Shown here piece by piece: positions 1,870-33,216 of a stretch of 64,000 nt of DNA (within the stretch, counting starts at the first letter, position 1; every line of letters starts with the position of its first letter). The stretch spans positions 9,735 through 73,734 of the IMG/VR virus record IMGVR_UViG_3300020049_008107; one strand, given 5' to 3'. This DNA comes from a virus. Lineage: Duplodnaviria > Caudoviricetes. Both the position numbers and the translations under genes were made by a program. The notes beneath the pieces are model-generated. The model was not told the DNA's origin. It made no database searches and saw only the letters and a program-made list of their open reading frames with translations.

Positions 1870-2904
1870 TTAATATCGTACTAGGTCATCTACTGCATTT
1901 ACAGACCAGTAGCATTTTAAGTTACCAGAAGCCATCAAATTGGCAACAATGAATTCCCTAGCTTTTTGGTTAAGCTCATGCAGATGAATGGCTTTTTCAT
2001 TTTCCTTACCAAGATAGTTAAGGAACGTAAAGCAGGGGATTGTCACCCCATTTTGCTCGCATGAACGACGATACAGCTCCATATCCCAAGAACCTATTCT
2101 TCTTTGTCTCTTTGTTACCGTTGTGATTTCTCGAAGATCAGAATAGCCGGACATTTCGGAAACGCGTTCCCAAGAAAGCTCTTGGTACATTCCACCACTC
2201 TCACCAGCAACGCGAATAGGGAAGGTGCGAAATACACCATACACATCGCGAACTTGTGACCAAGGAAGTTGAGCATAAGAAAGGAATGCTTGAGTGGTGG
2301 TGTCCCTAGAAGTCGTTTTGGGATAATGAGCACCAAGTACTGACAAACCAAATCCCTGACTTCCTTCAAGTAGAACTGTCCTACCATAGTGCATATGGAT
2401 ATCTAATACACAATACCTAGAAAGTTCTGGTACATCTTTAACAATGGTAGCTTTTCTTAATGCTCTCATACTAAGGGCAGCACCGATACCCTCCTGTGTT
2501 GAACCAGTAGACTGCCAAGGAAGGTGTTCCTTTTCCCATTCTTCGTTTTCATGGGTAATTACAGTTGCAAATGCCGAAATATACAATCTGTTCTTGATAG
2601 GAATACCAAGAGATTCTAGCATGCCAATTTCATCAATTAGAATCTTTGGATTGATAATTGCACCAGCACCAATACAGATGATAGCATCAAAATCAGTAAT
2701 TGCTCCAGATGGGATATGTCTAGTAACCACTTGTTGCATGAAATTATCGTCTCCATCAAATAGTGGAGCGGTATGCCCCGCTTGAGCGGAATTTACACTA
2801 ATAATAGTATCATACTTATTAATCTTAGCTAGTTTTGCCGCTACTAGCCCTTTACCCTCTGAACCATATTGCCCACCAATTACTACATCTATAGTACGTT
2901 TCAT
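1870..2904 (-). CDS. purZ: Adenylosuccinate-synthetase paralogue, PurZ-like (2-amino-deoxyadenylosuccinate synthase)
   Basis: 344 aa short PurA fold: GGQYGSEGKG (Ser where PurA has catalytic Asp), AGHT, EGSQGFGLS, YPKTTSRD, RTFPIRV, TTVTKRQRR, TFLNYL (PurA TKLD). Confidence 0.75.
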   Translation of the reverse strand: MKRTIDVVIGGQYGSEGKGLVAAKLAKINKYDTIISVNSAQAGHTAPLFDGDDNFMQQVVTRHIPSGAITDFDAIICIGAGAIINPKILIDEIGMLESLGIPIKNRLYISAFATVITHENEEWEKEHLPWQSTGSTQEGIGAALSMRALRKATIVKDVPELSRYCVLDIHMHYGRTVLLEGSQGFGLSVLGAHYPKTTSRDTTTQAFLSYAQLPWSQVRDVYGVFRTFPIRVAGESGGMYQELSWERVSEMSGYSDLREITTVTKRQRRIGSWDMELYRRSCEQNGVTIPCFTFLNYLGKENEKAIHLHELNQKAREFIVANLMASGNLKCYWSVNAVDDLVRY

Positions 2905-3114: not shown

Positions 3115-3870
3115 TTACGAGTGTGACTGGTTGTGTCTGATTACTAAATTCTGTAAGAATGGCTTAAGAGTTGACTCGATGTCATTCGCTATCTTACCAA
3201 AAAGTGAAAGCTCTTTGCAAACCTCTTTAATTGGCTTTTTATCAGTAATGGCAATGGTAGCTATCTTTTTTTCAATAGCTTTTAGTGGTGATGACTTAAT
3301 AGAAGCGCATAGTCTATTAATTAAATCGTTCATTTCAGTTTCTTGTTCAAATTTAGCTTGAACCGAAAATTTAGCCATGGTTTGATCTATGGCGAATGCA
3401 ACCGTTTTTTCCTTACTAACGAATGAGCCAATCTTAACTGTATTCAAATCAATGTCCTTCTTTTGGGATAGTTTTTTGGGTGTGATATAGTTGGTGTATT
3501 TTACCTTACATTCTGGACAGCCATTCTCAGTGTTCTTGTGGGTATAAGAGAATACAGTGTTGCATTCATCACATTGGTAAAATAACTTTTGACTTGATAC
3601 CGCTCTATAATAGTCTAGAGTAGCACCATAACCACGTCTTGCACAAAAAGCAAGCGGATTACCAACATCAAGTTTAGCTCTTCCAAGTGCATTGTACGCA
3701 GCGATAAGAAATGCAGACTTAATCTCATCTTGGTCATAGAGGTAATTGTGGTTTTGATGTGGTTTGAAGAACTTTAGTAGTTCTTTGGTAATGTGTGATT
3801 GTTCAGATAAAGTAGGGTTTTGCCCTTTTTGTATCTTAATGATTATTTTGTTTGTTAGTGTTTGTTCCAT
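3115..3870 (-). CDS. Phage sigma-70-like factor with CxxC...CxxC insertion
   Basis: Region-2-like DEIKSAFLIAAYNAL...AFCARRGYGATLDYYR; CDEC and CPEC; region-4 HTH-like EKKIATIAITDKKPIKEVCKELSL. Confidence 0.55.
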   Translation of the reverse strand: MEQTLTNKIIIKIQKGQNPTLSEQSHITKELLKFFKPHQNHNYLYDQDEIKSAFLIAAYNALGRAKLDVGNPLAFCARRGYGATLDYYRAVSSQKLFYQCDECNTVFSYTHKNTENGCPECKVKYTNYITPKKLSQKKDIDLNTVKIGSFVSKEKTVAFAIDQTMAKFSVQAKFEQETEMNDLINRLCASIKSSPLKAIEKKIATIAITDKKPIKEVCKELSLFGKIANDIESTLKPFLQNLVIRHNQSHS

Positions 3871-3889
3871 GTTAAATTCCTTTTTATTG

Positions 3890-3963
3890 TTTTATCGAGG
3901 TATTGTTAGTATCCTCTTTTGTCATTTTCTCATGGGGTACTTTCCTTGTCAAGCACTTTTTAG
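3890..3963 (-). promoter_or_regulatory. Early sigma70-type promoter cassette, copy A
   Basis: TTGACA-17 bp-GAAAAT with TG extension, then hairpin and CGATAAAA; 54 bp identical to 49676-49729. Confidence 0.75.
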
Positions 3964-4149
3964 GTTGAATATAGACTGGTTGTTTATATTGCTTAGAGCA
4001 ACTATCACTGCTTGCTTTAAATTGTCATTACTAGTAATAGCATTGAGCAATAAATCATACTTACCAGTAACATTGTATGCAAGTTCTTTGTTTTTAGCTA
4101 TGCGCTCGATAAAAGCGTCAAAACCAAGAATTTCTATCATGTCAGACAT
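3949..4149 (-). CDS. Small hypothetical protein
   Basis: 66 aa ATG ORF after the tail fibre gene; 3' end overlaps promoter cassette A. Confidence 0.35.
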   Translation of the reverse strand: MSDMIEILGFDAFIERIAKNKELAYNVTGKYDLLLNAITSNDNLKQAVIVALSNINNQSIFNLKSA

Positions 4150-4168
4150 AAACTATTATCGTGTTTTA

Positions 4169-5617
4169 TTAAGGTATATATGTTCCAACAAATTCATACA
4201 TTTCATATATGACAGCTTCAGGTCTTGTTACATTGTCAATGCGACCACCAGAGTCACCAAATGATTTATTTGTGGCTGTTGTTGTTGCGGTACTAATTGA
4301 ACCTGATATTGTATGTGTATGTGTTTCTTCTAACACTAAAGTGTCGGCATTTTTTGATACTGATGTATAACCTTCTGTAGCTTCAACTCCTTCAGAGGCA
4401 GCCATTTTATAGCTATTGCTACCACCACCATAACTTCCATCTCTAGCAACTGGAACCTCTCCTGGTGTGGGGGATGTATCTAATTCTGTTGGGGATATTA
4501 AATCGCCAAACATATGGTGTCTATGTCTACCTGCAGCACCAGTACTACCACCACTAATACTACCACTATGGTCATGAGTATTTTGTAATATGGTTATATC
4601 TTGTAATGAATCTGGTATCCTAAAACCATAAGCATATTTAAAATCTTTAGCTGAAACTATTGAACGCCCTTCAATTTTATAGTGTCTTGCTTTAGTTGGC
4701 TGACCAGCTATTCTATGGTGGTAAATGCGCATAGTACCAACACCAGCAGAGGCAGTGACAGTAGAAGGGAAAGTTAATGTCCTATTTAATAAATCTATAC
4801 CAGTTATTGAATAATCTCCAGCAACTATATTTCCAATTAAATTGTCAATAGTTAAACATTTCCAAGTTGTGAAACCACCATTTATATCTTTGTCATAATT
4901 CAACATTAACAATAGTAGATCAGTAACAGCGTTTGTTTGTAGTTGTATTGTTACTTCAGAACCATTAGCTGTATACCCAGTAACTGGAAATACAGTTGTA
5001 CCATCTATATTAACTAGAATTGATTGTAAATATGGTACATAGTCAGGATAAATGCTTGAATCTAAATCAACATTTGCTGATTTTAAGTTGAAATATGGAA
5101 AACTTGTTGAAATTGGTATGAGTTTCCTTAAAAATAGTGGTTCTCCTACTTGTTTAATTGATGCCTCTATTAGATCAAGTCTTTCAGCCATAGTACGCAT
5201 ACGTACATACGGTTGATTAACTAGGTCTACAGGAAATTCCTTAAACAAAACCGCTTGAGTAGGACTAATTATTGATTGTACACATCTGTATACACCACCA
5301 GCAAGACCTATCCAATCGCCATCATTTAGTTTAGAAAAATCAGTACCAACACCGGTTACTTGAGTTCCAATAGTTGATATTAATCCAAGTAATGGAATGT
5401 CTTTACCATTAATTTTGGTTGCGCCATGTCTTCTATTCTTTTCACCCATCAATTTCTTGATACCGAATAGTTCCCTTGACATTATTCCAAGAGTTTGATT
5501 AGAACCAGGCAGTGTGGCATACAATTCGTCACCATCACCATCGAAAGGATAATCAACATTATCCAAATCTTGTAATGCATCTGATTCGTTAGTTTGGTCT
5601 AGTACTGAAAATGACAT
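4169..5617 (-). CDS. Tail fibre protein
   Basis: Last gene of the baseplate module; HDHSGSISG, HRHH and THTHTISG metal-binding fibre motifs; C-terminal RPEAVIY collar-like end. Confidence 0.55.
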   Translation of the reverse strand: MSFSVLDQTNESDALQDLDNVDYPFDGDGDELYATLPGSNQTLGIMSRELFGIKKLMGEKNRRHGATKINGKDIPLLGLISTIGTQVTGVGTDFSKLNDGDWIGLAGGVYRCVQSIISPTQAVLFKEFPVDLVNQPYVRMRTMAERLDLIEASIKQVGEPLFLRKLIPISTSFPYFNLKSANVDLDSSIYPDYVPYLQSILVNIDGTTVFPVTGYTANGSEVTIQLQTNAVTDLLLLMLNYDKDINGGFTTWKCLTIDNLIGNIVAGDYSITGIDLLNRTLTFPSTVTASAGVGTMRIYHHRIAGQPTKARHYKIEGRSIVSAKDFKYAYGFRIPDSLQDITILQNTHDHSGSISGGSTGAAGRHRHHMFGDLISPTELDTSPTPGEVPVARDGSYGGGSNSYKMAASEGVEATEGYTSVSKNADTLVLEETHTHTISGSISTATTTATNKSFGDSGGRIDNVTRPEAVIYEMYEFVGTYIP

Positions 5618-6213
5618 TATAATTTACCTGCCTTTTTAAAAGTATAAATATCTGGTGCTGTTGAATATAAAACTTTGTTGCCTATATACACATTGAAATA
5701 TGCTGGCTTAAATGGTCTCAATTTTTCTATTAACCACAAAACTTGTGTTAAATTTGGTGTAATATCTAAATTAATGTATACAGTTCCAGGTATTTTACCA
5801 GTTATCACTCCACCACCAAAGCCACTAAGTAAATCACTACCAGCAATGACAGATTGTGCAACTATAAATGGAGTTTGAACTATAGAACCGTCATATATAC
5901 TAGAATCACCACCTAGATAATCATCTATAATTGGTTTCCACACCTCTTTAAAAGAACCATATATTTTGTGGATGTGCATAGCAGAAGCTGTACTTTTGCG
6001 TATGTCATCTTTAGTATCATATTTTGATATATAAGTGGCTACTAAAGCCGAAGATTCTAATGGAAATTCTGTTTCTTCTGGTATAAATAGTGTAGTTAGT
6101 TTTAAAATTCGAGATAGATAGTAACTATATTGGTCTTTTACAAAAGCTATCAAAGATATATACCTTTGGTCTGTTAAAAATTGCTCTGGTATTAGTGAAT
6201 CTAATTTGATCAT
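5617..6213 (-). CDS. Baseplate wedge/tail protein (P2 gpI-like position)
   Basis: Between baseplate J and fibre; LIEKLRPFKPAY ending typical of this position. Confidence 0.45.
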   Translation of the reverse strand: MIKLDSLIPEQFLTDQRYISLIAFVKDQYSYYLSRILKLTTLFIPEETEFPLESSALVATYISKYDTKDDIRKSTASAMHIHKIYGSFKEVWKPIIDDYLGGDSSIYDGSIVQTPFIVAQSVIAGSDLLSGFGGGVITGKIPGTVYINLDITPNLTQVLWLIEKLRPFKPAYFNVYIGNKVLYSTAPDIYTFKKAGKL

Positions 6214-7730
6214 AAATAGTTAACTGATATAGCACTTGGTTTAGTTATATAACCAGCTAGTATGTTTATTGGTGCACTTGGATTAGATACTTCTATATAG
6301 TCTATTCCACTTACATATCCCTGCACAGCTGAAATTATGTCCTGTGGTTGAAATCTTTGACCAAATGTTTGAAATGGAATATTGGACAACAGTTTAATTA
6401 ATTGAGCTTTATCTTCAATAGTATTGAAAGTATATGGTATTAATGTTGAAAATACGTTGTTCAATAATGAAACAACATTTTCGAAACTACTTGATAGGTA
6501 AGTGTCATTTATATACTGCCCTATCTCAGATACCCTAAGGGCAATAGCTAGCAATATAAACTTGTCGACCATTTCTAGTGTATACCCGTTTAGCAATTTG
6601 ACATTTATTGACGTAGAAACCAAATAGTAATTTGGGTTACGCATATTAATGGTTACATTTTCAAGTAGTGTTGCATTTATTAATACATCATACACAGCAT
6701 CTTTTAAAGCTGGAGATGGAAAACCACCACCAATTGGTATTATGAATACATCAACAGTTAATGTTCCAGTCTTAACTATTTGTACAACAGCTATACCACT
6801 AATTCTCAAAGCCAAGGCTACTCCAGAATCATTGTTGATAAAATGTTCGTTAGCTCGTACTGTTAGCTCAGAATTGGCTTTGGCTGATGCTATTGATTCA
6901 GCATCTTGACCACCTTGTGTTTGTGATGGGTTATTGCATGTAAGTAGGTTAGTATCACTACCAATGTATTCTGTAATGGCATTTGGCTTTACTATGCTAA
7001 TTATCCCACCACCAACAGCACAGTTTAGATAGATAGACAATCCACTAGCCGGAATAAACCCCTTCTGAACTAGGTCATTAGTGATACCACCAAATTTAAT
7101 ATAACTAGTACCATCCGATCTAAAATATAGTTTGTAGTGGTAATCAGTGGATTTTGAGTTAACCAAAGTAAATACCCTAGTATATTGGTTGCCATCAATT
7201 TCTAGTTTAATTGTTTCAGGTAATATGTCTGTAAATGGTAAATCAACAACTTGCCAACTTGAGTTATCAGTTGTTCCAATTATTGTTTCAAGTTGTGTTT
7301 CCTGTTGAAATACTTCAACAGTTGCGGTGCTAAATCCCATTGGGATTGTTAAATCAGTCCTTGCTTCGAAAGTGAGTGGATTGCTGGAGTTTTTCGCTCT
7401 AAAAATGAGTTGGTCTTTGGTAATTGTATAACTTGAGCTTGCTGTAGCTGTTGGATTTATTGATATATCAAGTATAGTTGAACTGGTTTTTTTCCAATTC
7501 ATCTGATAATCAACCAAGTTAAGTAATTCCTGTAGTTCTGGTCTACTAAATGCCTGACCTTTTAATAAACTATTAGCTACTATGTTAATTGTATTATTAA
7601 GTACATCAAATGGAGCACATACCATATTAATTACATGTTCAGGCAATTCTGCCAATTCTGGATCGGCTAATAATTGTTGTCTTAATGATAAGTAATCTCT
7701 TGTAGAGTATGATATTAATGATTGGTTCAT
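6210..7730 (-). CDS. Baseplate J-like wedge protein
   Basis: 506 aa; N-terminal YSTRDYLSLRQQL, GGQDAESIASAK motif; synteny after gp25-like gene. Confidence 0.7.
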   Translation of the reverse strand: MNQSLISYSTRDYLSLRQQLLADPELAELPEHVINMVCAPFDVLNNTINIVANSLLKGQAFSRPELQELLNLVDYQMNWKKTSSTILDISINPTATASSSYTITKDQLIFRAKNSSNPLTFEARTDLTIPMGFSTATVEVFQQETQLETIIGTTDNSSWQVVDLPFTDILPETIKLEIDGNQYTRVFTLVNSKSTDYHYKLYFRSDGTSYIKFGGITNDLVQKGFIPASGLSIYLNCAVGGGIISIVKPNAITEYIGSDTNLLTCNNPSQTQGGQDAESIASAKANSELTVRANEHFINNDSGVALALRISGIAVVQIVKTGTLTVDVFIIPIGGGFPSPALKDAVYDVLINATLLENVTINMRNPNYYLVSTSINVKLLNGYTLEMVDKFILLAIALRVSEIGQYINDTYLSSSFENVVSLLNNVFSTLIPYTFNTIEDKAQLIKLLSNIPFQTFGQRFQPQDIISAVQGYVSGIDYIEVSNPSAPINILAGYITKPSAISVNYL

Positions 7731-8110
7731 TGTGTCTCTATGGTATTAGAATTTAAATCTTTTAATTGTGTGTATAATACTTTAGCTAATAAATCACCAG
7801 TGCCAGTCTCAGACATGTCGTATTCTATATTATTATAGTCAATGGCAACTCTTCTTTCAGCTACTAAATTTGAAACGCTATCATTATAGAGCTGTATTGA
7901 CTCTATTATACTAACCGATATCTCAACGTCTCTTTGTAGTGTCAAAGGTCTGTTTTCTTTTATTACACTACCCAATGCCCTTGAATATGGAATTGATTCT
8001 TTTGGAGTAGTTACATAAAATAGTACATCTCCGGCAATCTCTCTATCAACATTTTGACCACGATTAACTATATTGTCAAAAGATGTAAGCTCATCGATAG
8101 TAAAGGACAT
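7727..8110 (-). CDS. Baseplate wedge subunit, gp25/GpW-like
   Basis: 127 aa; TPKESIPYSRALGS resembles the T.kGER..rP.fG motif; precedes baseplate J. Confidence 0.6.
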   Translation of the reverse strand: MSFTIDELTSFDNIVNRGQNVDREIAGDVLFYVTTPKESIPYSRALGSVIKENRPLTLQRDVEISVSIIESIQLYNDSVSNLVAERRVAIDYNNIEYDMSETGTGDLLAKVLYTQLKDLNSNTIETQ

Positions 8111-9278: not shown

Positions 9279-9895
9279 TAGTTGTTGGTGTTATTCTCCG
9301 AAAGAATGTTATTAAGCCTACTTGCTATTGCTGTAAACTGTGTATTATTATTTGGTACACCAGTTGTTCCAGCTGGACTATTAACCGTTATTGCTTTTAT
9401 TGCATCTATTAGATCACTAAGTATTTGTTTTAGAGTCTCTCCAAGTACCGTTTTTTCTACTGTAGCAGTACCGTTTTTTATTTCAAATTTGGAAGTGGTT
9501 GAATTGTAGATTATTGAGAACGTTCCAGATTCAAATATAACATACTTGTTCAAATCGCCATTTTTAGAAGTGTAGGTTAGTGGATCAAGCCCAATCCACC
9601 TTGCATTAGAATAGTTACCCTCTTTAAAGTAGAATTCTACGTACTGACCAACTTTTACTGGAATAAACGATTGTACTATTGTTGCTGGTCTTGCTGGAAT
9701 CCATGTTAATTTATCATCCTCTTTAGCATTTAACTCTTCAACATAAAGCTTAGCAATCATGTCTTTGTCAATAGCCATTACCTTGCCAGTATAGTGCCTG
9801 TAATAAACAAGCATATCAAAGACTATGGATTCTACAGCAGTAACAAAGTCATCAGGATTGAGCTTGCGTCTTTGACCAACATTTAATTCTGGCAT
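9278..9895 (-). CDS. Baseplate spike, gpV/gp5 OB-fold-like
   Basis: YTGKVMAID...W...FIPVKVGQYVEFYFKEGN..WIG N-terminus; VLGETLKQILSDLIDAIKAITV C-terminus. Confidence 0.65.
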   Translation of the reverse strand: MPELNVGQRRKLNPDDFVTAVESIVFDMLVYYRHYTGKVMAIDKDMIAKLYVEELNAKEDDKLTWIPARPATIVQSFIPVKVGQYVEFYFKEGNYSNARWIGLDPLTYTSKNGDLNKYVIFESGTFSIIYNSTTSKFEIKNGTATVEKTVLGETLKQILSDLIDAIKAITVNSPAGTTGVPNNNTQFTAIASRLNNILSENNTNN

Positions 9896-11292
9896 TATCT
9901 AGCAATCTCCACATTCATCCTATATCCATCAGTGGTTATTGATTGTTCTATTGAAGTAAAATGCCAGAGTGTTTTCTTTATAGTTCCATCATCAGTAGGA
10001 TTTGTGCGGAATTTTTCTGATATTCCACTTGTTTCATCAGGATTTTTGAAATTTCTATTAACAAAAGTATTGGTGCTCTTTATTTGTTTCTTTCTTAAAC
10101 CAAGCCAAACCCTGTCATTAAGATTGAATAGAGGATTTGCTACAACATCAAAAGAACATGTAAAACCTTCCCCTTCGGGATAAGTCGTACACTTTTCTGA
10201 CTTAAAATAAGTTTCATATAGTCCACCAGAACCATACAAATCTTCTGGTGTTGAATCTATTATTTGTTGTACCAATTCGGCTTGAGTACTAACACCCCCC
10301 CTAGCTCCTTCTGCTGTTAATATAGCTTTTACTTTTGGTGCATCAAGTGTATACACATTTACTTCTTCGCCTTTCGAAGCTTTAAAAACAAGCTTACCAT
10401 CAACCATTTCAGCAGTAGAACCAACACCACCGTTATTATTTGTTTGTAATTTGCCACCTATAATATTTGAATTAGTGTTACCATAGTCTAGGTAGTGATA
10501 CTTGCCATCATTATTAGTTTTACCAGTAAAAGTTTTACCATCATTAACATATGACATATCAGTAATTTGTATTTGTGTTATTAGTGGATTAACAGTGCCA
10601 CCATCAGTAATAACAAGTTTTAAATTGTAGCTAATACACATTTGCCTAATAAATGCAACATTACTTATATTGTTTTGTACGAAGTATCTATCATCATTAA
10701 GCACTTTATCTTGTAATGAAAATTTTATAAAAGATTTTGCTCCAATTTCATTACATAGCTTTTTAAACATAGAGCCAAGAGTACCAAAGTTAAAACACCT
10801 CATTTTTGGCTCTGCAAAGTTTTTAGTGCCAATTCTAAGAGTTGTGGTAAATGTAGATATACCGTCTTTTAATTCTATGTCACCAATGTTAGCTATTACA
10901 CAAGTAAAAACACCTCTTGAATAAGTGCCGGTTATTTCATCATCAATGGCTGTTGTAAATCGTGGATTAATCCGCTTTATACCCCACTCAACAAGCAATT
11001 CTTTATATTTTTTATTAAAGAAAACAAAATTGATACCTAGTGGATCAATGATTGATAGGTTAAATGTTGTAGCTTCACCAATTTTTTCAGACACAGAAAA
11101 AGAATTGATAGTCGTACCTAAATCTTTTTCTGTATAAACATTATCAGCAATTATTCGAGATAGATTTTCTGAAGGTGAAGCGTTGCGATTAATTGGTGTT
11201 ACACCCTTAAAACCAATATTGAAATATGGTACAAGATCTGAACCAACAAGTGGTGATATTACATGTTTTTCATTAGAATAACCAAGAATCAT
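9895..11292 (-). CDS. Baseplate hub protein (gpD/gp27-like)
   Basis: 465 aa upstream of the spike; YFVQNNISNVAFIRQMC and LDYG segments as in late-control-D family; synteny. Confidence 0.55.
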   Translation of the reverse strand: MILGYSNEKHVISPLVGSDLVPYFNIGFKGVTPINRNASPSENLSRIIADNVYTEKDLGTTINSFSVSEKIGEATTFNLSIIDPLGINFVFFNKKYKELLVEWGIKRINPRFTTAIDDEITGTYSRGVFTCVIANIGDIELKDGISTFTTTLRIGTKNFAEPKMRCFNFGTLGSMFKKLCNEIGAKSFIKFSLQDKVLNDDRYFVQNNISNVAFIRQMCISYNLKLVITDGGTVNPLITQIQITDMSYVNDGKTFTGKTNNDGKYHYLDYGNTNSNIIGGKLQTNNNGGVGSTAEMVDGKLVFKASKGEEVNVYTLDAPKVKAILTAEGARGGVSTQAELVQQIIDSTPEDLYGSGGLYETYFKSEKCTTYPEGEGFTCSFDVVANPLFNLNDRVWLGLRKKQIKSTNTFVNRNFKNPDETSGISEKFRTNPTDDGTIKKTLWHFTSIEQSITTDGYRMNVEIAR

Positions 11293-14657: not shown

Positions 14658-15128
14658 CTATTTTTGCTCCAAAATACCTAAGAAGTCAGGAGAAATTAAA
14701 GTGTCATGAGTAGCCTTACTAATTCCTTGTGGTAAACAATCTAAATGAAACCAGCCATAGTTTCTCATTTCATCAGTGTGTTTCATTCCTTCTGGTAAAT
14801 CACTTAGATTAATAATATAGATATGAATATTGTCGCCATTTGGTTTGCGGAATGAATAGCTACCTAATATATCAGTTGCAGCATTTATAGCATCAAGATC
14901 AATACCAGATTCTTCTTCCACTTCACGTTTAAGAGTGTCTTCTATATCTTCACCAACAATAGCATGCCCACCAGCTACAGCCCACGAATCGTCATCTGAT
15001 CTTTGAGCAAGCAATAATAAACCTTTATAGAAGATATAAGCAAATGCACAATTCTTTGAATCTGGTCTATAAGCAGAAAACTGCTTAACTGTTTCTTGTA
15101 GGTCTTTCCTAGCTTGATCTCTACCCAT
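14658..15128 (-). CDS. Nudix hydrolase
   Basis: Complete Nudix box GHAIVGEDIEDTLKREVEEESGI (Gx5Ex7REUxEExGU). Confidence 0.85.
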   Translation of the reverse strand: MGRDQARKDLQETVKQFSAYRPDSKNCAFAYIFYKGLLLLAQRSDDDSWAVAGGHAIVGEDIEDTLKREVEEESGIDLDAINAATDILGSYSFRKPNGDNIHIYIINLSDLPEGMKHTDEMRNYGWFHLDCLPQGISKATHDTLISPDFLGILEQK

Positions 15129-23993: not shown

Positions 23994-24317
23994 ATGTGGA
24001 TACAATCAACATTAGGCGATTTTAGTATAGTAAAACACCATTCCAAACAAGAATGGTTAATTAAAACTAGACACAAGGAAGACATTAAGAATGCCTGTAA
24101 TGCATTAGGATATAAACAATTAAAAATAATCATTGTTGACAAGACTGCTGATTATAAATATAGAATTATTATACCATACAAAGACTTTCTTGATTTTATG
24201 ACTATTCTAGCGCACCAAGTTGAATACCCAAATTTTAAAGCACACGAACAAACCAAACGTACGCCTAAACGATTAAAAGCTCTTTATGAAGTTTACAATG
24301 CTTTAAAGAAGCCCTGA
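23994..24317 (+). CDS. Conserved phage hypothetical protein
   Basis: MWIQSTLGDFSIV...ADYKYRI...YPNFK pattern; GAGG upstream. Confidence 0.65.
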   Translation: MWIQSTLGDFSIVKHHSKQEWLIKTRHKEDIKNACNALGYKQLKIIIVDKTADYKYRIIIPYKDFLDFMTILAHQVEYPNFKAHEQTKRTPKRLKALYEVYNALKKP

Positions 24318-24340
24318 AAATGGGCTTCCTTTTGTTTTCT
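24308..24340 (+). terminator. Rho-independent terminator
   Basis: GAAGCCC-TGAAAAT-GGGCTTC hairpin followed by a T-rich tract at a convergent junction. Confidence 0.7.
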
Positions 24341-24346
24341 TTGGTA

Positions 24347-24508
24347 CTAGGCTGGGTTTTCGGCTACAACAGTAGCGGATTCGTTTTTAGCGGCTATTTC
24401 TCTTTCAACTGCCTCTTTTAGTTTTTCAATTGAGGTATTGGTGATACCAAGCAATTCTGCCACTGGCTTGCCCGAATTATCCCTAACTATTATAGGTTTA
24501 TCTGGCAT
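24347..24508 (-). CDS. Small hypothetical protein (53 aa)
   Basis: Manual: MPDKPIIVRDNSG...; starts 2 nt after the tube stop. Confidence 0.5.
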   Translation of the reverse strand: MPDKPIIVRDNSGKPVAELLGITNTSIEKLKEAVEREIAAKNESATVVAENPA

Positions 24509-24509
24509 A

Positions 24510-24941
24510 TTAACCTGTTTGAGTAGGATTCCAATCCCAAGGAGCTAGGGTAGTTTTGAGTTTGGCAAACTGTCTGTCTTTTTGGTCAAATGCTGGATTA
24601 ATAAACCCTAGCATCTCGCAATCAGGAAATGAATCCCTACGATAGGCAGTAGTAATATCACCTGATTTATCAGTATAGAGCATCACTACATCTCTCGCAA
24701 ATTTACCAGAGGTTCTCCAATCAAGGAAATATTTAAGTACTGCAGAGGTACGCTTAACAAGATATTCTACTTCAAGAGCTTTGATCTTTTCCATACCAGA
24801 ACCAATAAGGCGAACTTTACCATTTTCCGGTACTTCAATTGGATCTTCATCAACACCAGATTCTGAGATTGTAAGTAATCCAGGCAATTGATATCCATTT
24901 ATTAGTAAAATTCGTACATCTGAAATCCCTTGTCTTTGCAT
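24510..24941 (-). CDS. Tail tube protein
   Basis: 143 aa; T4 gp19-like pattern (IEVPENG...LKYFLDWR...RDVVM...); downstream of sheath. Confidence 0.7.
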   Translation of the reverse strand: MQRQGISDVRILLINGYQLPGLLTISESGVDEDPIEVPENGKVRLIGSGMEKIKALEVEYLVKRTSAVLKYFLDWRTSGKFARDVVMLYTDKSGDITTAYRRDSFPDCEMLGFINPAFDQKDRQFAKLKTTLAPWDWNPTQTG

Positions 24942-24960
24942 ATAATACCTGTTTGCTGTC

Positions 24961-27120
24961 CTATATTTCTTCTAAATAAAATATGTATTTATAAGTCAAA
25001 TGTGTTTCATTTATCTTAGTAACATTATATACTAAATTTCTTGGCAGGAGTACTTCAAATTCCTTATCCTCAAATGAACCAGCAAGCTTGTTGATATACA
25101 CACCAGATTTAGTTTGTATTATCATCCTATAAGGTCTATTAAAAGCCTTATCTTCTTTAATAGAGGTAGAGGTAAATCCGCGTAAAATAAGTGGTTGTTT
25201 AGCATTAAATCTGTCTAATATTACCTTAGCTAACTGGTCTGTATCAAATCCCCTATATACAACACCAGCAAATTTAGGTGCATACAGTAGGAATCTATCA
25301 ACATTTCTAATGTCAACTAGCTCATTAGCGGTTAATTTAGTATTAAACCTAAGTCCTTGATTATAATCATGACCTGAACCAGTGTATGCACTAACCGATT
25401 GTACTATGTCAGGAGACTTAGCCTTTACATCACTAATATACTTATTAATATTCTTTTCATGATTTTTAGGTACAATATCCATCACCCTAGACATACCAAG
25501 ACTAGACAGGTCTTTACTTGTCGGATCATAAGGCAAACAAGTAGTAGATTCAATATGTTGTATCATTTGTGACACTTCAGACTTCGAATTTACCCTAATA
25601 CCAGTAGTTAGTTCATACCAAGTAGTTAGCTTTTTAAATTTAGGGTGTGACTGTAATTCACCCATATCAGTATCAAGTATATCATTCTTCTCATTTTTAT
25701 CAAGTACTACAGCAGAACCATAATTGTTATTGATAAATCTTTTTTGCATATAATTAAATCTTGCTTTAAGAATGGCATATATACTACTAGTTTTAATAAC
25801 GTTTAGTACTTTAAGCATTTGGGGTTGATATTTATTGAACTGTTTAATTAAGTCGTCTTCATCTAAAGCACCAAACACCTTAGAAGCTTCTGGATTTATA
25901 CTACCATTACGCATAGTCTCAAATTCTGTCACTTCTTTGGTAAGGTCTTTATTTCCACCAGTAGCCTTGTAGGTTAGTGCGCCACCATTATCAATCCTAT
26001 AGACCTTACCATCTTTTACTATGATATTGCTACCACCAGTACCAATTACATCCCAATTTCCAAGCCATGCATCAATGATAAATGAGGAACGAAGTTTAAG
26101 TATAGCCGAATTTCTATCATTTTCAGAAAGCTTACCAAATTCAGTGCCATCAATATACTTAGATAGTTGGTATGCCTTACCTTGGTCATCGGATTTGATT
26201 GTAGTTTCTGGTACATCAATACCAATAGTGTTGTATATGCTATTAGCTAAACTTTCACTCTGTATGTGTCCAGCACTAGCACCATATTTTTGAACATAGA
26301 CTATTCCATCGACTAACACTGGTTTTGCTCCAGTAGAAGATGAACCAATAATTGGTAAAGTGGGTGTTACATTAGCAGACTTTGGAAGTGCCGTTTGATT
26401 AGAAGTCTTATCCTCAAGCTTTATACCAGTTCCATAAGTCTTAATAAGATATAAGATTTCGAGTTTGGTCATTGATGATATCTTATCACCTTGAACTTTA
26501 CCAATGTCACCCAGATAGTATAATTGCTCTTGTATAAATGGATCAGCATGGAACTTCTGAATTGTTAAGAACTTATATTTGTCTAATGGGTGTGGTTCTG
26601 GTTTCTTATTTGCTACAGTTCCAGTTGATGATAATGGTGTAGATGTAGTGGGTTTGTCTAGTTTGGACTTATTTCCACTATCAATCTTATCAGTATATTT
26701 TTGATATAAAGTAACAATTAGAGTATTTGATATAGAAGAGTTTGTTGGAACTAACCACTTGAAAAATCTCCAATCTGGAAATACATTTGGATAAAATGTC
26801 CACTTATTAAGCATTCTATTAAATGCATCAAAAGCTTCAGGACTAGACCTTTTTAATAAGACGGTTTTAACTAGTGCTGATACTAATTTTGTAGTGTCGG
26901 CATTCATATAATTAATGAATTCGCGTTTTTTGGTTCGGTCTAGATAAAAACCAGAGTAACCCTTTAATATGTGGATTTTTGATGCTTTATTGGCAAATAT
27001 CTGTTTAAATGTTGAAGTAATAGAAGAACTATTAAAATTAGATGTTACATCAGTTGATTTTCTTACTAATATTGATGTAGCTTGAAGATGTAAAGATTTT
27101 AATACCTCAAGTCTATGCAT
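24961..27120 (-). CDS. Multidomain kinase-like + ADP-ribosyltransferase (R-S-E clade) protein
   Basis: Kinase-like: VQK, SESLANSIY..IGIDVP, DAWLGNWDVIG..SNI, RIDNGG. ART: YTGSGHDYNQGLR, VYRG, FTSTS, KEFEVLLPR. Confidence 0.8.
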   Translation of the reverse strand: MHRLEVLKSLHLQATSILVRKSTDVTSNFNSSSITSTFKQIFANKASKIHILKGYSGFYLDRTKKREFINYMNADTTKLVSALVKTVLLKRSSPEAFDAFNRMLNKWTFYPNVFPDWRFFKWLVPTNSSISNTLIVTLYQKYTDKIDSGNKSKLDKPTTSTPLSSTGTVANKKPEPHPLDKYKFLTIQKFHADPFIQEQLYYLGDIGKVQGDKISSMTKLEILYLIKTYGTGIKLEDKTSNQTALPKSANVTPTLPIIGSSSTGAKPVLVDGIVYVQKYGASAGHIQSESLANSIYNTIGIDVPETTIKSDDQGKAYQLSKYIDGTEFGKLSENDRNSAILKLRSSFIIDAWLGNWDVIGTGGSNIIVKDGKVYRIDNGGALTYKATGGNKDLTKEVTEFETMRNGSINPEASKVFGALDEDDLIKQFNKYQPQMLKVLNVIKTSSIYAILKARFNYMQKRFINNNYGSAVVLDKNEKNDILDTDMGELQSHPKFKKLTTWYELTTGIRVNSKSEVSQMIQHIESTTCLPYDPTSKDLSSLGMSRVMDIVPKNHEKNINKYISDVKAKSPDIVQSVSAYTGSGHDYNQGLRFNTKLTANELVDIRNVDRFLLYAPKFAGVVYRGFDTDQLAKVILDRFNAKQPLILRGFTSTSIKEDKAFNRPYRMIIQTKSGVYINKLAGSFEDKEFEVLLPRNLVYNVTKINETHLTYKYIFYLEEI

Positions 27121-27121
27121 G

Positions 27122-27280
27122 TTAGTTTGTAGATAACATTTCTTCCATGTCTTGTGGTAAATTGAGTGAATTGTAGAGCTTGTCTACTGCAAAATCCAAA
27201 TCTGACTTCTTTATATCAGTGGGTTTGTCTTTTGCAGGAGCCTCAGGCTCTGGTATTAAGTCGGAATCTTCATCTTTCAT
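27122..27280 (-). CDS. Small acidic hypothetical protein (52 aa)
   Basis: Manual: MKDEDSDLIPEPEAP...; coupled on both sides. Confidence 0.5.
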   Translation of the reverse strand: MKDEDSDLIPEPEAPAKDKPTDIKKSDLDFAVDKLYNSLNLPQDMEEMLSTN

Positions 27281-27552
27281 AATTTGGCAAGCTCAGCATC
27301 AACAACAGACTTTGATTTTGAAAAGTCCTTATTTTTGCCTTGTTTTAGTATCTTATCTGTAGCTTTATCAATTATTGACCAATTAGAAGTCTTTCTATTA
27401 ACAAAACACTCAAGAATTTTTTGGTCATCATTAATAACAGTTTTAGTAAACCCATTACCAGCAGCATTAAGTTTCCAATCATCAGTTACACTAACTGCCT
27501 TCTGTACCAGTCTTTTTAGTTGACTCTTTGTAACTATAAATCTTTTTTCCAT
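27277..27552 (-). CDS. Leader-bearing protein 5 (putative internal head protein)
   Basis: N-terminus MEKRFIVTKSQLKRLVQKA. Confidence 0.75.
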   Translation of the reverse strand: MEKRFIVTKSQLKRLVQKAVSVTDDWKLNAAGNGFTKTVINDDQKILECFVNRKTSNWSIIDKATDKILKQGKNKDFSKSKSVVDAELAKL

Positions 27553-27564
27553 ATTTTATTATCG

Positions 27565-29346
27565 TTATCCTAGTGGGATAACTACTCCTACTCCAACAGC
27601 TAAACTTTCAAGAAGTGGTGGCGGATAGAACCTAGTAGCTATATCACCCTCACCAACATTAATTGCTGCTTGGTCATTGTTAAACTCATCAGCTTGAACA
27701 ATAAACACATCAGCAAATGTAGAATCTGTACCATCTTCTTTCTTGAATGAACCAAATGCACCTTCCGGATCAATACCAAATGGGAATGAACCTTGCCAGC
27801 ACTTATATCCAAAGTCATTGATTTTTTGCCCGTATTCCTTCAATTTAGATAGTTTGTTAGGTCTATTTTCTGCTTGAGATAATGACTCAACAGTTGATAT
27901 CTTGAAGAAGTTTTGCATAATAAGGTAATGACCAAATAATGCACCAACATTTGTAGACAAAGTACGGAATGAACGAAGTAATACACCCTTACCAGGTCTT
28001 GCTTGAATTAGATTAATACCGGCAGCTAATAGATCAGTTCTATCATCTTCAGACCATGAATCTTCAGGTAAATTAGGAGTATCCACATAGCCAGACATTG
28101 GAGAATCTTCACCAGCAGGAACGCGATGGAATCCAAGTCTATAGAAGGTTTTAATCCAATTACCCATTACCCCACCAATGTTAGGAATACGAATAACAGG
28201 ATTTGCCCCATCACCAATTGGATCAGAAACATTGCGCCACCCATATGATAAAACGGCTTGAACTTGGTCACTTCTCTGGAATCCATTGCCAACAGTAATA
28301 AGTTCATCTTTAGTTAAGTCCTTTGTTATGTTACTAATCCAAACTGGTGTATCTAATCTTTCAGTACAGTAAGCTTCACCAGCAACATTAACACCAGATA
28401 CAGTAGAATCAGCATTACCAAGTAGTCTAATTGGGAAAGAATCAAATGAAGCAAGTAGGTCATTCCAGTCAGCACTAGAACTTGGTGCAGTACCATCACT
28501 ACCACCAGTAAGCATTCTTTTTGTGATATCAGCAGGATACTTATCAAATAGAACAGCAGAAGATGAATTGCTATCTGTTATGTTGATAAGTGGGTGGTCT
28601 TTGAATTGATTACCAATATAGAATTCAATGTTTTGTGGTTCAAGTGATAACCATCTAGTAGACTGTGGTAATTTTACTTCATTGAGCAAACCGCGTCTAT
28701 TTTTCTTGAAAACAGAAATCTTAAATCCAATAGCAGCTACATCATCTGCTGCAGTAAAAGCATTAGTAGTTGCAGCACAACCAACAGCCTTTAGGGTTTC
28801 ATCAATAGTCAATACTTTTACATATTCTGGAACAGAACCAATTCTAAGTACATCACCAATACGAATATCCGAAATGGAAGTAAGCAATAAACTAGTAGCA
28901 CCAGCAAGAGAGTTAGCAGCCATAGTAGTCTTGAATCTATCACCATTAATCCAGCTAAAAGCTAGCTTGTTACCATAGATGGATTTGTCATTCTTTAATT
29001 GGAAAGCGGATAACACTTGAGCGGATTCAATAGCAGATGCAGTATTTTTACCAAGGACTAATGACTTTGCTTGAACAGCATCAGAGGCAACATAACCCTT
29101 AATACCAATTTTACATTGCACACCCTTAAGATTTGCATAGGTATGGTCAAGAACATAACGACCATAAAACCCTAATCTATTGTCTCCAGCTTTATAATCA
29201 GCTTCAGATTTGTTATTGAGTACAATTACTTCATCAAATCCTCTATCAAAACGACCAATAAGACCAACAAATCCAAAATCTGCAGGTAAGATTTCAACAC
29301 CAGTTCTAGGAGGTAGGTTATACCCAAATACACCACGTCTACGCAT
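27565..29346 (-). CDS. Tail sheath protein
   Basis: 593 aa; GFVGLIGRFDRG N-terminus, LTGGSDG, RLGFHRVPAG, GINLIQ..PGKG..LRSFRTLS sheath motifs. Confidence 0.85.
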   Translation of the reverse strand: MRRRGVFGYNLPPRTGVEILPADFGFVGLIGRFDRGFDEVIVLNNKSEADYKAGDNRLGFYGRYVLDHTYANLKGVQCKIGIKGYVASDAVQAKSLVLGKNTASAIESAQVLSAFQLKNDKSIYGNKLAFSWINGDRFKTTMAANSLAGATSLLLTSISDIRIGDVLRIGSVPEYVKVLTIDETLKAVGCAATTNAFTAADDVAAIGFKISVFKKNRRGLLNEVKLPQSTRWLSLEPQNIEFYIGNQFKDHPLINITDSNSSSAVLFDKYPADITKRMLTGGSDGTAPSSSADWNDLLASFDSFPIRLLGNADSTVSGVNVAGEAYCTERLDTPVWISNITKDLTKDELITVGNGFQRSDQVQAVLSYGWRNVSDPIGDGANPVIRIPNIGGVMGNWIKTFYRLGFHRVPAGEDSPMSGYVDTPNLPEDSWSEDDRTDLLAAGINLIQARPGKGVLLRSFRTLSTNVGALFGHYLIMQNFFKISTVESLSQAENRPNKLSKLKEYGQKINDFGYKCWQGSFPFGIDPEGAFGSFKKEDGTDSTFADVFIVQADEFNNDQAAINVGEGDIATRFYPPPLLESLAVGVGVVIPLG

Positions 29347-29552
29347 TAGATTAATACCTCAGTTTTGATTTCTTTTGTGAATAGTGATTTGATAGCAAGT
29401 AGGTTTTTGACTCGTTTATGCTCAAGTAAAGATTTATTAACCTCTACATTTTTGAATGGCTCAATTAGTAACAACTCTTGGTCTTTTAGGTTAAGCTCGA
29501 TTTCAATAGTACCATTGGTATTGTTAATTAATAAAACTTTTTCTTCTGTCAT
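29346..29552 (-). CDS. Small pre-sheath structural protein
   Basis: Likely start MTEEKVLL at 29552, overlapping the upstream stop. Confidence 0.5.
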   Translation of the reverse strand: MTEEKVLLINNTNGTIEIELNLKDQELLLIEPFKNVEVNKSLLEHKRVKNLLAIKSLFTKEIKTEVLI

Positions 29553-30712
29553 ATCACTATCCCCGTCACTGTTTGATTGATTGTTTGGAAGTCCATTGTT
29601 TGTAGATTTCTTTCCCATGATTCCTCGGTAATATCTATTGTACAGCTAACAACTATTTTATTGATAATATCAGTAGCATCACCATAATCCGGATTCTCAA
29701 TAATAGTACAATTTAATTCATGTCGTCTACCGTTTAAATAAATTATAGTCTTCTTATTAAATGCCTTAGTAAGTATAAGCCTTAGCATCTCCAATACTTC
29801 ATCATGTCGAGCCATACCCTCTATCAGAAATGTATGTTTCCAGGCACTACCTACCGTACCCATTCTAACTTGACCAGATAATTCAATGGAATCTATGATA
29901 GGTGAATATTCCTCTTGCTCTTCAAGTATTTCCTGATCAAACCCACTAATCGATATACCCGCTATGTATGAATCAACTTCATTTGCCGTAAATTCAACAG
30001 GGAAGTATAAATAGAATGGTATATCTTTAAATTCATCACTAAGTACACTTAATCCATACTCATTACCAAAACTAATTGACCTAGTACTTACATCGCTAAT
30101 AATCTGGTGTATATCCCCATTCTCAAGCATTATGCATTGGTATTTGTCCAGGTATGTAGTATCCGATACTTGTGCTGTATTACTTCCTCTATCTCCACTA
30201 AGAGTACCTATCTGTACTGATTTCCTATCTATATACTTAAGGATATGGGATTTTATACCCTCGTACGCGTCTATAGGTAATTCGTCGATAAATAGGATTA
30301 TATCTGATATAAAGAACTGTATGGGTACTAATGCTTCTATTTCTATCCTACTAATATATCGATGAGGATTACGAAATGTATACTGTTCGAATGACTGATT
30401 GACTTCCATTAGGAATTCAGTGAATGTGAACTGGTCTTGATAGAATCTTATTTTTAATCCATAATCAGTTAGAGCTTTTGGGATAATTGTTTGATTACAT
30501 TTAATTGATAGTGCTATGTTATCAAGATTTTTGGTTTCTATCCTTGGAGAATAATCAATGTAGGCTATTGATGGACTTGTGAATTTGAATAGTAATTGAC
30601 TTTTATACCCTGAACTTGCCAGATGTTCCCAAGTGGTTATTTGGGTAGTATTAGTGGTATCTTGATGAATCCAGCCCAGATTTTGAGTACAATCATCAAT
30701 GGCTATTTTCAT
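29549..30712 (-). CDS. Putative tail terminator/neck protein
   Basis: 387 aa upstream of the sheath; synteny only. Confidence 0.4.
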   Translation of the reverse strand: MKIAIDDCTQNLGWIHQDTTNTTQITTWEHLASSGYKSQLLFKFTSPSIAYIDYSPRIETKNLDNIALSIKCNQTIIPKALTDYGLKIRFYQDQFTFTEFLMEVNQSFEQYTFRNPHRYISRIEIEALVPIQFFISDIILFIDELPIDAYEGIKSHILKYIDRKSVQIGTLSGDRGSNTAQVSDTTYLDKYQCIMLENGDIHQIISDVSTRSISFGNEYGLSVLSDEFKDIPFYLYFPVEFTANEVDSYIAGISISGFDQEILEEQEEYSPIIDSIELSGQVRMGTVGSAWKHTFLIEGMARHDEVLEMLRLILTKAFNKKTIIYLNGRRHELNCTIIENPDYGDATDIINKIVVSCTIDITEESWERNLQTMDFQTINQTVTGIVI

Positions 30713-30953
30713 TGTATTTTTAAATAAGTATTTTTAATTCTACTTTCTTTACACTAACTTTTGTAACAGATTTGTTTGCATCTATAAGAGCCAATTCTGT
30801 ATTGTGGTAGACCTTAATTTCTCCAGTTAATTCGTTAGTGACTGGAAATTCGGTTTCTTCATTAAATAGTATATATCCAATGATGATCATTTTAAAAATC
30901 CTCTATCCTCAATTATTAAACAAATCACTAGTACATCAATACTTAGACTTCTA

Positions 30954-32197
30954 TTAACATAATCCAAGGTTTCTCCAAGCGAAATTGGCATCTTTTATAT
31001 TGGATAAAATACCACCATCTTCTGGTAAATTAGTCTTAGTTGCTTGAACAATAGTTATTGCACAATTCAAACCAAGAAACATGCCAATTAGTTCTTCATT
31101 TGTGAAAAGCTCATATTTATTACCAACAAGCTTATAGATATTAGAAATTTGCTCACCAATTTTACTTTTGGATTTTATTCGGTCATGTGCTCCAGCAGTA
31201 TAATCAATAATTAATGCCTTTGTTACTTCATTCATTATAGAATTCTAGTCCCCTTAGGTATACACATAAAAAGAACCCTACTTTTATCCATTGGGACACA
31301 TTTTGTTGCATCTAATTGGTTGTAGTAGGTTGTCCAGAATGACTTAATGGCATTTGTAACCCACTTAGCACTATAGTGTTCTGAATACTTGTCATTTTCC
31401 TTTGCAGAATCCAGCATCTCTTTTGGAATTCCAAACAAATATTCACACTCACGCTGTTTATCTTCGTGTGTTCTAATTTTGAATAGTTGCCAAGTTGGAA
31501 GTCTAGACTTAACAGTCTTTACCCAATCAGGGCTAACACTAGTACTAAGGACATATCCAACATGCAATATTTGTTCTGTAGTTTTATTCATCGATTTCCA
31601 CCTTAATATTTAGCTCTACAATTACAAACATAGCCATTGTAGTGCCATCTATTTTATGAGTGATAGTTAAAATAAGGTCATCTTTCCAATACCATTTTCT
31701 AACATAGGGAAAGTTAGTTACTTCAACTCTAGCACCTTCCTGAATTGCTTCGAGTCCTAATCCCTTATCAATACAGTACTTATGCAAAACTTTTTGTATG
31801 ATTGCCTCTTCCTTTTCTACAAGTTCCTGTATATTAAACACTCTCTTTGAGTCCAAATTGTTGTACCATCCTTCTAATGTATATCGACCACTTTACTTTT
31901 GGATTTAGAATTATCCAAGCAGCTTTAAACGAATATTCTGCTTCTAGCAATTCTGCAGTTCTATCGGCTAGCTCTTGTAGTTGCTTTCTTTTTACTAGGG
32001 TTGCCTTGGAAGCCATTTCTTGTACTATCGATTAAAGGAATTAAAGCCTTAGCCCTTTGAAGTGCCTCATTTTCCTCCATGAAACCAATAGTCTGCATTA
32101 CTGGTGGATTGTAGATAGAAACATAATGCGTCTCTTTAGCTTTTTCAATTACTTCCTTTAGATTTTTCTTATGTGGATCAATGGTTACTATTCGCAT
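30954..32197 (-). other. Cluster of five small hypothetical CDSs
   Basis: Coupled ORFs 30954-31235, 31235-31591, 31584-31856, 31834-32016 and 31961-32197; no recognisable motif. Confidence 0.55.
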
Positions 32198-32308
32198 AGT
32201 TTACCTCACATTTAACAGTGGCAACTTTCTTATCATAATAAGTTACAATAAGAACGATATAGCATTCCAATAGGATTGCAACAAGGATTATTAGTTTTAT
32301 TGGTAATT

Positions 32309-33022: not shown

Positions 33023-33216
33023 TAATCATTAATCCCCTTTTCAATTATTCGGACAATTCTAAATAATAATATTGAAATGGCTATTGCGAAACAGAACCAC
33101 ATTGACAGAAATATTTGAAAGTTGTTTTTATACAAATTCTGTAATTCTTTGATAAACACTATTACCAAGATAATTTCAAGATTGCGCAATAGTTCAATAA
33201 AAAACTTGTAGGTCAT
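33022..33216 (-). CDS. Small membrane protein
   Basis: 64 aa, two hydrophobic segments, coupled. Confidence 0.45.
   Translation of the reverse strand: MTYKFFIELLRNLEIILVIVFIKELQNLYKNNFQIFLSMWFCFAIAISILLFRIVRIIEKGIND

Follow-up and report, generated by a model that had tools for sequence, protein, structure and literature searches.

The stretch of DNA considered here (hereafter, the window) comprises 64,000 nucleotides, bases 9735–73734 of the 73,734 bp IMG/VR record IMGVR_UViG_3300020049_008107, which belongs to a tailed phage (Caudoviricetes). The whole genome, i.e., the window and the 9.7 kb upstream of it, is designated G000. The record carries a 121 bp direct terminal repeat, is rated as 100% complete and has a guanine plus cytosine (GC) content of 34.4%. 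The gene in question occupies window positions 1870–2904 on the minus strand. It is intact, starts with ATG and encodes a protein of 344 amino acids (aa), predicted to be a PurZ-type succino-aminodeoxyadenylate synthase of a new subclade. The known enzymes of this type, PurZ of Vibrio phage phiVC8 (6FM1/6TNH) and of cyanophage S-2L (7ODX; for S-2L, PMC8342488), are ATP/dATP-dependent and specific for deoxyguanosine monophosphate (dGMP). The features described below suggest that the phage probably replaces adenine with 2-aminoadenine (Z).

The protein contains all the motifs from which a preliminary description of this DNA had proposed a PurZ-like enzyme: the phosphate-binding loop (P-loop) GSEGKG at residues 14–19, in which Ser15 stands in place of Asp13 of Escherichia coli adenylosuccinate synthetase (PurA), TSRD (198–201), RTFPI (226–230), TTVTK (261–265) and TFLNY (293–297). 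The last of these, T293-F294-L295-N296-Y297, is the donor-base site. The motif AQAGHT, with Q41, is located at residues 40–45. Besides Asp13, the catalytic set is kept, with K18, H44, R150, Q183, TTVT and R268/R269 being invariant or nearly so. The match of the open reading frame (ORF) to the family is not due to chance, as indicated by the scores of Pfam PF00709 (Adenylsucc_synt, 1.1e-38), phrog_1211 (“2-aminooxy adenylosuccinate synthetase”, 9.8e-69) and the NCBIfam PurZ model NF038379, which is the top model (1.2e-65, 221.7 bits, compared with 200.2 bits for archaeal PurA). The sequence matches in the PDB are PurA of Pyrococcus horikoshii (1.7e-35), the PurZ0 structure 7VF6 (2.4e-34), phiVC8 PurZ 6FM1 (3.6e-34) and S-2L PurZ 7ODX (2.1e-21). 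An AlphaFold 2 model based on 57 clade sequences (predicted local distance difference test score 93.4, predicted template modelling score 0.92) superimposes on these four proteins with template modelling (TM) scores of 0.78–0.87. Since the fold search yields TM values of about 0.8 for PurA, PurZ and PurZ0 alike, the fold confirms the family and does not separate PurA from PurZ.

The residues of the active site were compared in an alignment of 359 sequences, comprising the query, 253 database relatives and reference sets. The references were PurZ of S-2L, Vibrio phage QH (a relative of phiVC8), PMBT28, JeffCo and BCSR129, PurZ0 of Wayne, Ghobes and Hiyaa, 11 archaeal short PurA, long PurA including that of E. 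coli, and 80 loci from prokaryote genomes. With the exception of two sequences, Asp13 is replaced by Ser, rarely by Gly, in all groups that are not true PurA; in the clade of 59 sequences containing the query, Ser is found in 57. The position of E. coli Asp333, the residue that reads the guanine of GTP, holds Asp in all 11 archaeal PurA, in all 38 members of the PurZ0 clade and in 74 of 75 prokaryote-genome loci. In the query clade it is Asn in 58 of the 59 sequences, and the classical PurZ proteins have Asn in four cases and Gln in the fifth. In both groups this Asn or Gln is flanked by Phe and Tyr. The distinction drawn in the preliminary description, that such residues separate PurZ from PurA while PurZ0 keeps the GTP-recognizing Asp, held throughout the alignment. 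The query has Glu in its P-loop (GSEGKG), as do 57 sequences of the clade of 59, and all five classical PurZ have Thr. The Gln that substitutes for E. coli Asn38 in AQAGHT, against which caution had been advised, is real; however, it is conserved in 54 of the 59 clade sequences and is thus a marker of the clade and not a lesion.

The same positions can be read against published work. In the metaGPA preprint (bioRxiv 2025.10.22.683976), residues F295, Y298, S14, F12, T262, W252, Y244, P233 and I34 (phiVC8 numbering) separate contigs enriched in dZ from canonical ones. The query agrees with phiVC8 at F295, Y298, S14, T262, W252, Y244, P233 and I34 and has Tyr at the position of F12, like S-2L. 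In the structure of S-2L PurZ (PMC8342488), F306 stacks on the adenine of dATP, and the site of the GTP-binding Asp is occupied by Q308 (in phiVC8, N297), which would clash with a 2-amino group.

Phylogenetic studies were conducted with two methods. In the FastTree tree of the 359 sequences, the query belongs to the clade of 59 with a support of 0.99, the backbone being unsupported. The sequences of this clade are all metagenomic, apart from a contig assigned to a Fibrobacter metagenome-assembled genome (MAG). A maximum likelihood tree of 86 sequences was calculated with IQ-TREE (LG+G4, 1000 ultrafast bootstraps, UFBoot). The query does not cluster with PurA but forms its own clade with a UFBoot of 100, and it groups with the PurZ-type sequences with a support of 100 against archaeal PurA. 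The clade is placed beside that of PurZ, their sister relation having a UFBoot of only 49. Classical PurZ, together with Flavobacterium phage MaF61 and one metagenomic sequence, is supported with a UFBoot of 99, and the PurZ0 clade of Wayne, Hiyaa and Ghobes (UFBoot 97–100) stands apart from the query. Because of this placement, the protein falls into neither of the named subgroups; by its sequence, the query clade is a third lineage, which has the Asp-to-Asn switch in common with PurZ.

The trees and the underlying searches also drew attention to two other groups of proteins. In Flavobacterium phage MaF61 (PQ858689.1, 168 kb), a PurA-like protein carries the motifs GSSGKG and NFVNY and branches basally in the classical PurZ clade (UFBoot 99). 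Its gene (4977–6320 of locus L122) is situated between the scaffold and terminase genes, and since MaF61 has been cultured, it is a culturable candidate for a test for Z. Many PurZ-like proteins of 500–640 aa (e.g., P0086, P0120, P0124, P0126 and P0133) have an N-terminal extension of 150–200 aa, which is a kinase-type domain (AAA_18/AAA_33) where Pfam recorded one (P0086 and P0120). This suggests that the extended proteins are fused nucleotide kinase-synthetases.

A comparison with the known systems places the active site of the query nearest to classical PurZ, and its P-loop and predicted helper set nearest to the system of PurZ0, DutZ and DmtZ. Like PurZ of phiVC8 and S-2L, the query has the short PurA fold (TM 0.78–0.81), Ser at the position of Asp13, the Arg of TSRD, P229, W245, TTVT and an adenine pocket composed of a stacking Phe, Asn instead of the GTP-binding Asp, and Tyr. 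Unlike them, it is only 28–33% identical to these proteins, has Glu and not Thr in the P-loop, Thr and not Asn before the Phe of the pocket, and Gln instead of Asn38; its genome is devoid of datZ, mazZ/DUF550 and DpoZ/PrimPol and features a contractile tail and a DnaE polymerase instead. The PurZ0 + DutZ + DmtZ system is represented by Arthrobacter phage Wayne and Gordonia phages Ghobes and Archimedes (7VF6; Poubanne et al. 2026, PMC12884076). Similar to it, the query combines Ser13 with a GSE(A/G)KG P-loop, and the genome encodes a Dut-family enzyme nearest to DutZ and a protein of the nucleoside 2-deoxyribosyltransferase (NDT) superfamily, with no DatZ or MazZ. PurZ0 proteins are also the closest among cultured phages (33–37% identity). 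Differences from PurZ0 include the Asn in place of the invariant Asp, TSRD versus TSSD/TSND, and the separate clades; moreover, the PurZ0 phages are high-GC actinophage siphoviruses with a DpoZ-1 polymerase of family A, in contrast to a myovirus of 34% GC with DnaE. The NDT-like protein is of the DUF7768 type and only distantly related to DmtZ (hhalign probability of 89%, no BLAST match). The short PurA of P. horikoshii (5K7X/2D7U) is the best PDB match in both sequence (see above) and fold (TM 0.85–0.87) and shares the length class and the xEGKG P-loop; however, this enzyme, which uses IMP and GTP, has Asp13, Lys in TSKD, a GxxDK donor site and G for the first T of TTVT.

Z-pathway genes were sought by scanning all ORFs of at least 70 aa in the genome against Pfam and by BLAST comparison with known Z-pathway proteins. 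The preliminary description had recognized no datZ, mazZ or dpoZ in the window, and this extends to the whole 73.7 kb genome. The only polymerase detected is a family C enzyme, a DnaE-type DNA polymerase III (PolIII) alpha subunit at G000 217–2937, whose closest matches in the phage collection are only about 30% identical. The context that does support a Z pathway was missing from that description and consists of two genes, one of them encoding a DutZ-like protein just upstream of the window (G000 3855–4445) and the other an NDT-superfamily protein within it (58290–58757, minus strand); both helper types are used by Wayne-type Z phages (PMC12884076). In that work, dutZ was found in 98 of 98 PurZ0 genomes and dmtZ in 85, and biochemical experiments showed that DutZ converts dATP and dGTP to monophosphates and that DmtZ hydrolyses dAMP.

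The DutZ-like protein possesses the dUTPase motifs, including a C-terminal GFGSSG. Among 50,697 phage records, its best matches (39–46% identity, E-values of 1e-17 to 1e-23) are nearly all in PurZ0 phages, namely Microbacterium phages of the Goodman type, Arthrobacter Korravirus, Gordonia phages Archimedes and Ghobes, Streptomyces phages Hiyaa and Galactica, and Micrococcus phage Olihed; canonical phage dUTPases are 27–36% identical (1e-6 to 1e-12). In the Dut tree, the query protein and those of four relatives lie inside the PurZ-linked Dut group, beside DutZ of Ghobes. The NDT-superfamily protein (g118) is a candidate DmtZ-like dAMP hydrolase or transferase, with matches to DUF7768 (3.7e-8) and phrog_355 “nucleoside 2-deoxyribosyltransferase” (7.9e-15) and a weak one to Nuc_deoxyrib_tr. 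Its hhalign alignment with DmtZ includes the segment of the catalytic Glu; the position of Asn77 is occupied by Cys, and the Tyr region is unaligned. The adjoining gene g119 (58738–59112, minus strand) encodes a DUF1599 “nucleotide modification associated domain 1” protein (PF07659, 2.7e-6; phrog_1485, 1.3e-17), for which a PDB sequence search, Atlas fold neighbours and the literature yielded no function. On the circular map, g118 and g119 belong to one DNA-metabolism block with PurZ and DnaE.

Relatives of the phage were recovered by an alignment-based scan, a single-protein scan of viral contigs having found none. Four relatives (L125, L126 and L127 from IMG/VR, and L012) encode PurZ about 50% identical to the query. 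All of them retain the order g15 – PurZ – g11 – RecA – g9 – g8 – primase/helicase – Dut – g3 – DnaE over whatever part each contig covers. The NDT-like gene is kept in contigs G024, G025 and L012, and two near-complete relatives (51.8 and 48.9 kb) retain both this gene and the tail sheath. One relative’s contig is binned with the MAG of an uncultured Fibrobacter, which offers at most a faint clue to the host.

The neighbours of PurZ-like genes were also examined in a sample of 80 IMG/VR loci. All three loci combining the Ser-Glu P-loop with Asn carry Dut and PolIII alpha. The loci combining the same P-loop with Asp (n = 66) carry Dut in 44 cases, DmtZ in 21 and a family A polymerase in 36. Another PurZ-like phage locus with this P-loop and Asp, L159 (IMGVR_UViG_3300009873_000088), also carries homologues of DatZ, DUF550, DUF5664 and PolIII alpha, so the pairing with DnaE is not confined to the clade of the query. 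In the literature, no paper pairing PurZ with DnaE was found, leaving aside an unread article on the bacterial replication origin that matched both names, and neither of two surveys from 2025–26 mentions polymerase III.

The characterization of the phage as an AT-rich myovirus was borne out by the low GC content and by two genes on the minus strand. The tail sheath of a contractile tail is encoded at 27565–29346 (g62; TM 0.81–0.82 to Phage_sheath clusters of the Atlas, 5.1e-5 to PDB sheath chains, homologues in G024 and G025). A protein resembling baseplate J or the baseplate wedge is encoded at 6210–7730 (g19; phrog_6 “baseplate wedge subunit”, 1.3e-6), and a Baseplate_J match (3.2e-4) came from one unlocalized ORF of the batch 3115–23795. 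A tape-measure protein and a tail fibre are also encoded, according to the domain and PHROG scans. The gene g87 (38971–40638), considered as an alternative sheath candidate, has no PDB match.

The frequencies of short palindromes in G000, compared with the expectation of a second-order Markov model, were used as an indirect test for Z, with a mixed outcome. The GGCC site is wholly absent (0 observed, about 59 expected). GATC reaches 0.46 of the expected number and CATG 0.64, and the ratios of the remaining 4-base palindromes are near 0.7–1.3. Avoidance of GGCC would still be necessary in a Z phage, since a site composed of G and C only gains no protection from Z. The depletion of GATC stands beside a Dam-like N6-adenine DNA methyltransferase of the D12 class (g72; 32309–33022, minus strand; PF02086, 1.7e-13; phrog_56, 2.3e-34). 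Enzymes cutting GATC are not mentioned in the main text of the restriction paper PMC12944874.

It is likely that the ORF encodes a functional, ATP-dependent synthase of the PurZ type, converting dGMP to dSMP (N6-succino-2-amino-2′-deoxyadenylate) and feeding a Z-DNA pathway. The combination of Ser13 and the adenine pocket, in a phage provided with Dut and NDT helpers, argues for the PurZ function, and a possible Z genome, as first proposed, is as far as the sequence goes. From the signature, tree position, gene content and synteny described above, we infer the following pathway. The enzyme would use dGMP and aspartate, with ATP or dATP (not GTP) as the phosphate donor, to form dSMP, which the PurB and kinases of the host would convert to the triphosphate dZTP. 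The phage itself would contribute two helpers that remove adenine nucleotides and provide dGMP: the DutZ-like enzyme would drain dATP and yield dGMP from dGTP, and the NDT-like protein may destroy dAMP. The DnaE polymerase, if it prefers or at least tolerates dZTP, would write Z opposite T.

A broader reading, put forward tentatively and with somewhat less than an even chance, is that the query clade constitutes an unnamed third PurZ lineage, in which an ancestral GSEGKG P-loop is combined with an ATP pocket. The Asp-to-Asn switch would then be shared with classical PurZ by descent or have arisen independently, the lineage would reside in phages with contractile tails that lie beyond the known host range, and their Z-DNA would be copied by a family C DnaE.

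Several observations weigh against a Z pathway centred on this enzyme. The score of 221.7 bits is below the NCBI curated PurZ cut-off of 300. T293 is located where PurZ of S-2L and phiVC8 has an Asn that forms a hydrogen bond with adenine N6, and every characterized ATP-using PurZ has GSTGKG in the P-loop. Ser13 alone is not diagnostic, since in prokaryote genomes Z helper genes are missing from the surroundings of 79 of the 80 loci that carry GSEGKG. DatZ/HD, MazZ/MazG, DUF550, DUF5664, a family A polymerase and PrimPol were not found in the 73.7 kb genome by the Pfam scan. BLAST of the genome with known DatZ, MazZ, MazZ-2, DUF550, DUF5664, DmtZ and DpoZ, including the proteins of S-2L, QH, PMBT28 and JeffCo, matched only PurZ and Dut, and six-frame searches for HD and MazG domains found nothing. 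The Dut tree has a moderate support (0.76–0.88) and contains only nine canonical outgroup sequences. The Dam-like methylase and the depletion of GATC are easier to reconcile with a genome that contains at least some adenine, or in which sites containing A are under pressure. Furthermore, no polymerase of family C is known to use dZTP.

Part of this evidence would suit a phage in which the enzyme is active as proposed but Z is incorporated only partially, or in which the main effect of the enzyme is on the nucleotide pools, where it would consume dGMP and (d)ATP and so starve the replication of the host; the virion DNA would then keep much of its adenine. The methylase and the scarcity of GATC point in this direction, as do the lack of a dedicated dATP triphosphohydrolase DatZ in the BLAST and six-frame HD searches and a DnaE with no known preference for Z; in S-2L, the exclusion of adenine depends on the removal of dATP and not on the choice made by the polymerase (PMC8342488). 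On the other hand, PurZ0 phages attain Z genomes via DutZ without DatZ (PMC12884076), the triad of PurZ, Dut and NDT is kept across a deep divergence, and Dam-type enzymes might accept Z, which also bears an N6 amino group. We consider this alternative unlikely, the pathway set out above being preferred.

The phosphate donor is the point at issue if the protein is instead assigned to the PurZ0 type, using GTP within a Wayne-like DutZ/DmtZ pathway. The GSE(G/A)KG P-loop, the helper set of a DutZ-like and an NDT-like protein, as in Wayne and Ghobes, and the best phage tblastn matches, which are PurZ0 phages, are in accordance with this assignment. However, the guanine-reading Asp, invariant in the PurZ0 clade, is lost in practically the entire clade of the query, which lies outside the well-supported PurZ0 branch, and the use of GTP is accordingly rated as improbable. 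Still further from the evidence is an ordinary auxiliary metabolic gene of the PurA type, which would convert IMP to adenylosuccinate and boost the supply of AMP. The resemblance of both fold and sequence to the P. horikoshii enzyme and the existence of phage PF00709 homologues outside the PurZ group (PMC12884076) would be compatible with such a role. Nevertheless, Asp13, which is kept in 99% of true PurA (PMC12884076) and in all 11 archaeal short PurA of the present alignment, is replaced by Ser, the GTP-binding Asp is lost (N296), TTVT stands in place of the G-A-T-T segment of PurA, and the protein clusters with PurZ-type sequences and not with archaeal PurA. A PurA function is therefore considered highly improbable, and a PurZ-type synthase using ATP remains the preferred assignment.

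The genes surrounding PurZ belong to a replication module, and those located in the window are on the minus strand. The window begins with the N-terminal 182 aa of RecA (1–546; full gene G000 9282–10280), identified by PF00154 (9e-87 for the full protein) and syntenic in the relatives. A primase-helicase is encoded at G000 5553–8012. The 346 aa neighbour of PurZ (g11; 557–1597), syntenic in L012, L125, L126 and L127, has no Pfam, PHROG or NCBIfam match. It is probably a single-stranded DNA-binding protein similar to T4 gp32, as its relatives carry an H...C...CPFC zinc-type pattern; owing to this gp32-like pattern, its candidacy as a hidden nucleotide hydrolase was rejected. The upstream neighbour g15 (3115–3870; 251 aa) contains an OapC-like zinc ribbon (PF09845, 1.9e-5) and is possibly a transcription factor. 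In all of the four relatives except L126, its homologue adjoins PurZ; that of L126 is located about 2.6 kb upstream on the opposite strand. The small protein g3 (G000 3240–3689, outside the window, minus strand), encoded between the Dut-like protein and DnaE and kept in L125–L127, was likewise rejected as a hidden nucleotide hydrolase because of its pattern resembling sigma-70 region 2 (…GEFxRR…PPxAPFSKYVKLYxxxWLNxYTK), and it may be a phage sigma-like factor within the replication module.

Other genes of the window include a NUDIX hydrolase (g33; 14658–15128, minus strand; PF00293, 1.1e-12; phrog_1198, 5.9e-14), possibly an additional (d)NTP pyrophosphohydrolase. Within 23994–43917, one unlocalized ORF matches ADP-ribosyltransferase exoenzyme families (PF03496, 1.2e-7; PF01129, 1e-4), and another matches a DUF559/Vsr-like endonuclease. 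No tRNA genes were found in the window.

The comparison with prokaryote genomes revealed a large cellular family of PurA-like proteins with Ser13, in which GSEGKG is combined with the GTP-binding Asp (loci L013–L091, e.g., L015: 2768–4855, L048: 4018–6987 and L036: 6001–8792). The recurring neighbours of these genes encode a 338 aa dCTP-deaminase-like protein (29 loci), a CapP-like M78/Macro protein (26 loci; PADLOC capP, 2.7e-25), a 267 aa protein of no named function (18 loci) and a deoxynucleoside kinase (13 loci). Neither the Ser13 proteins nor the dCTP-deaminase-like neighbour have a match in PADLOC 2.0. The composition of these loci suggests that they may be nucleotide-based defence or stress operons.

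The phages with Z-DNA characterized to date belong to the siphoviruses and podoviruses infecting Pseudomonadota, Cyanobacteriota and Actinomycetota, and they use a family A DpoZ or PrimPol. If the proposed reading is true, the Z pathway extends to AT-rich, contractile-tailed phages replicated by DnaE, which would be the first family C replicase shown to write a non-canonical base. Since the protein naturally combines a P-loop like that of PurZ0 with a donor pocket like that of PurZ, one or two point mutants would be enough to test what determines the use of ATP or GTP. For synthetic biology, the phage would offer a compact helper set (PurZ, a Dut-type and an NDT-type protein) and, for Z-DNA, a candidate polymerase of family C. 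For the phage itself, a third hydrogen bond would be added to about two thirds of the base pairs at 34% GC, and packaging, transcription from AT-rich promoters and replication would all face a large physical change.

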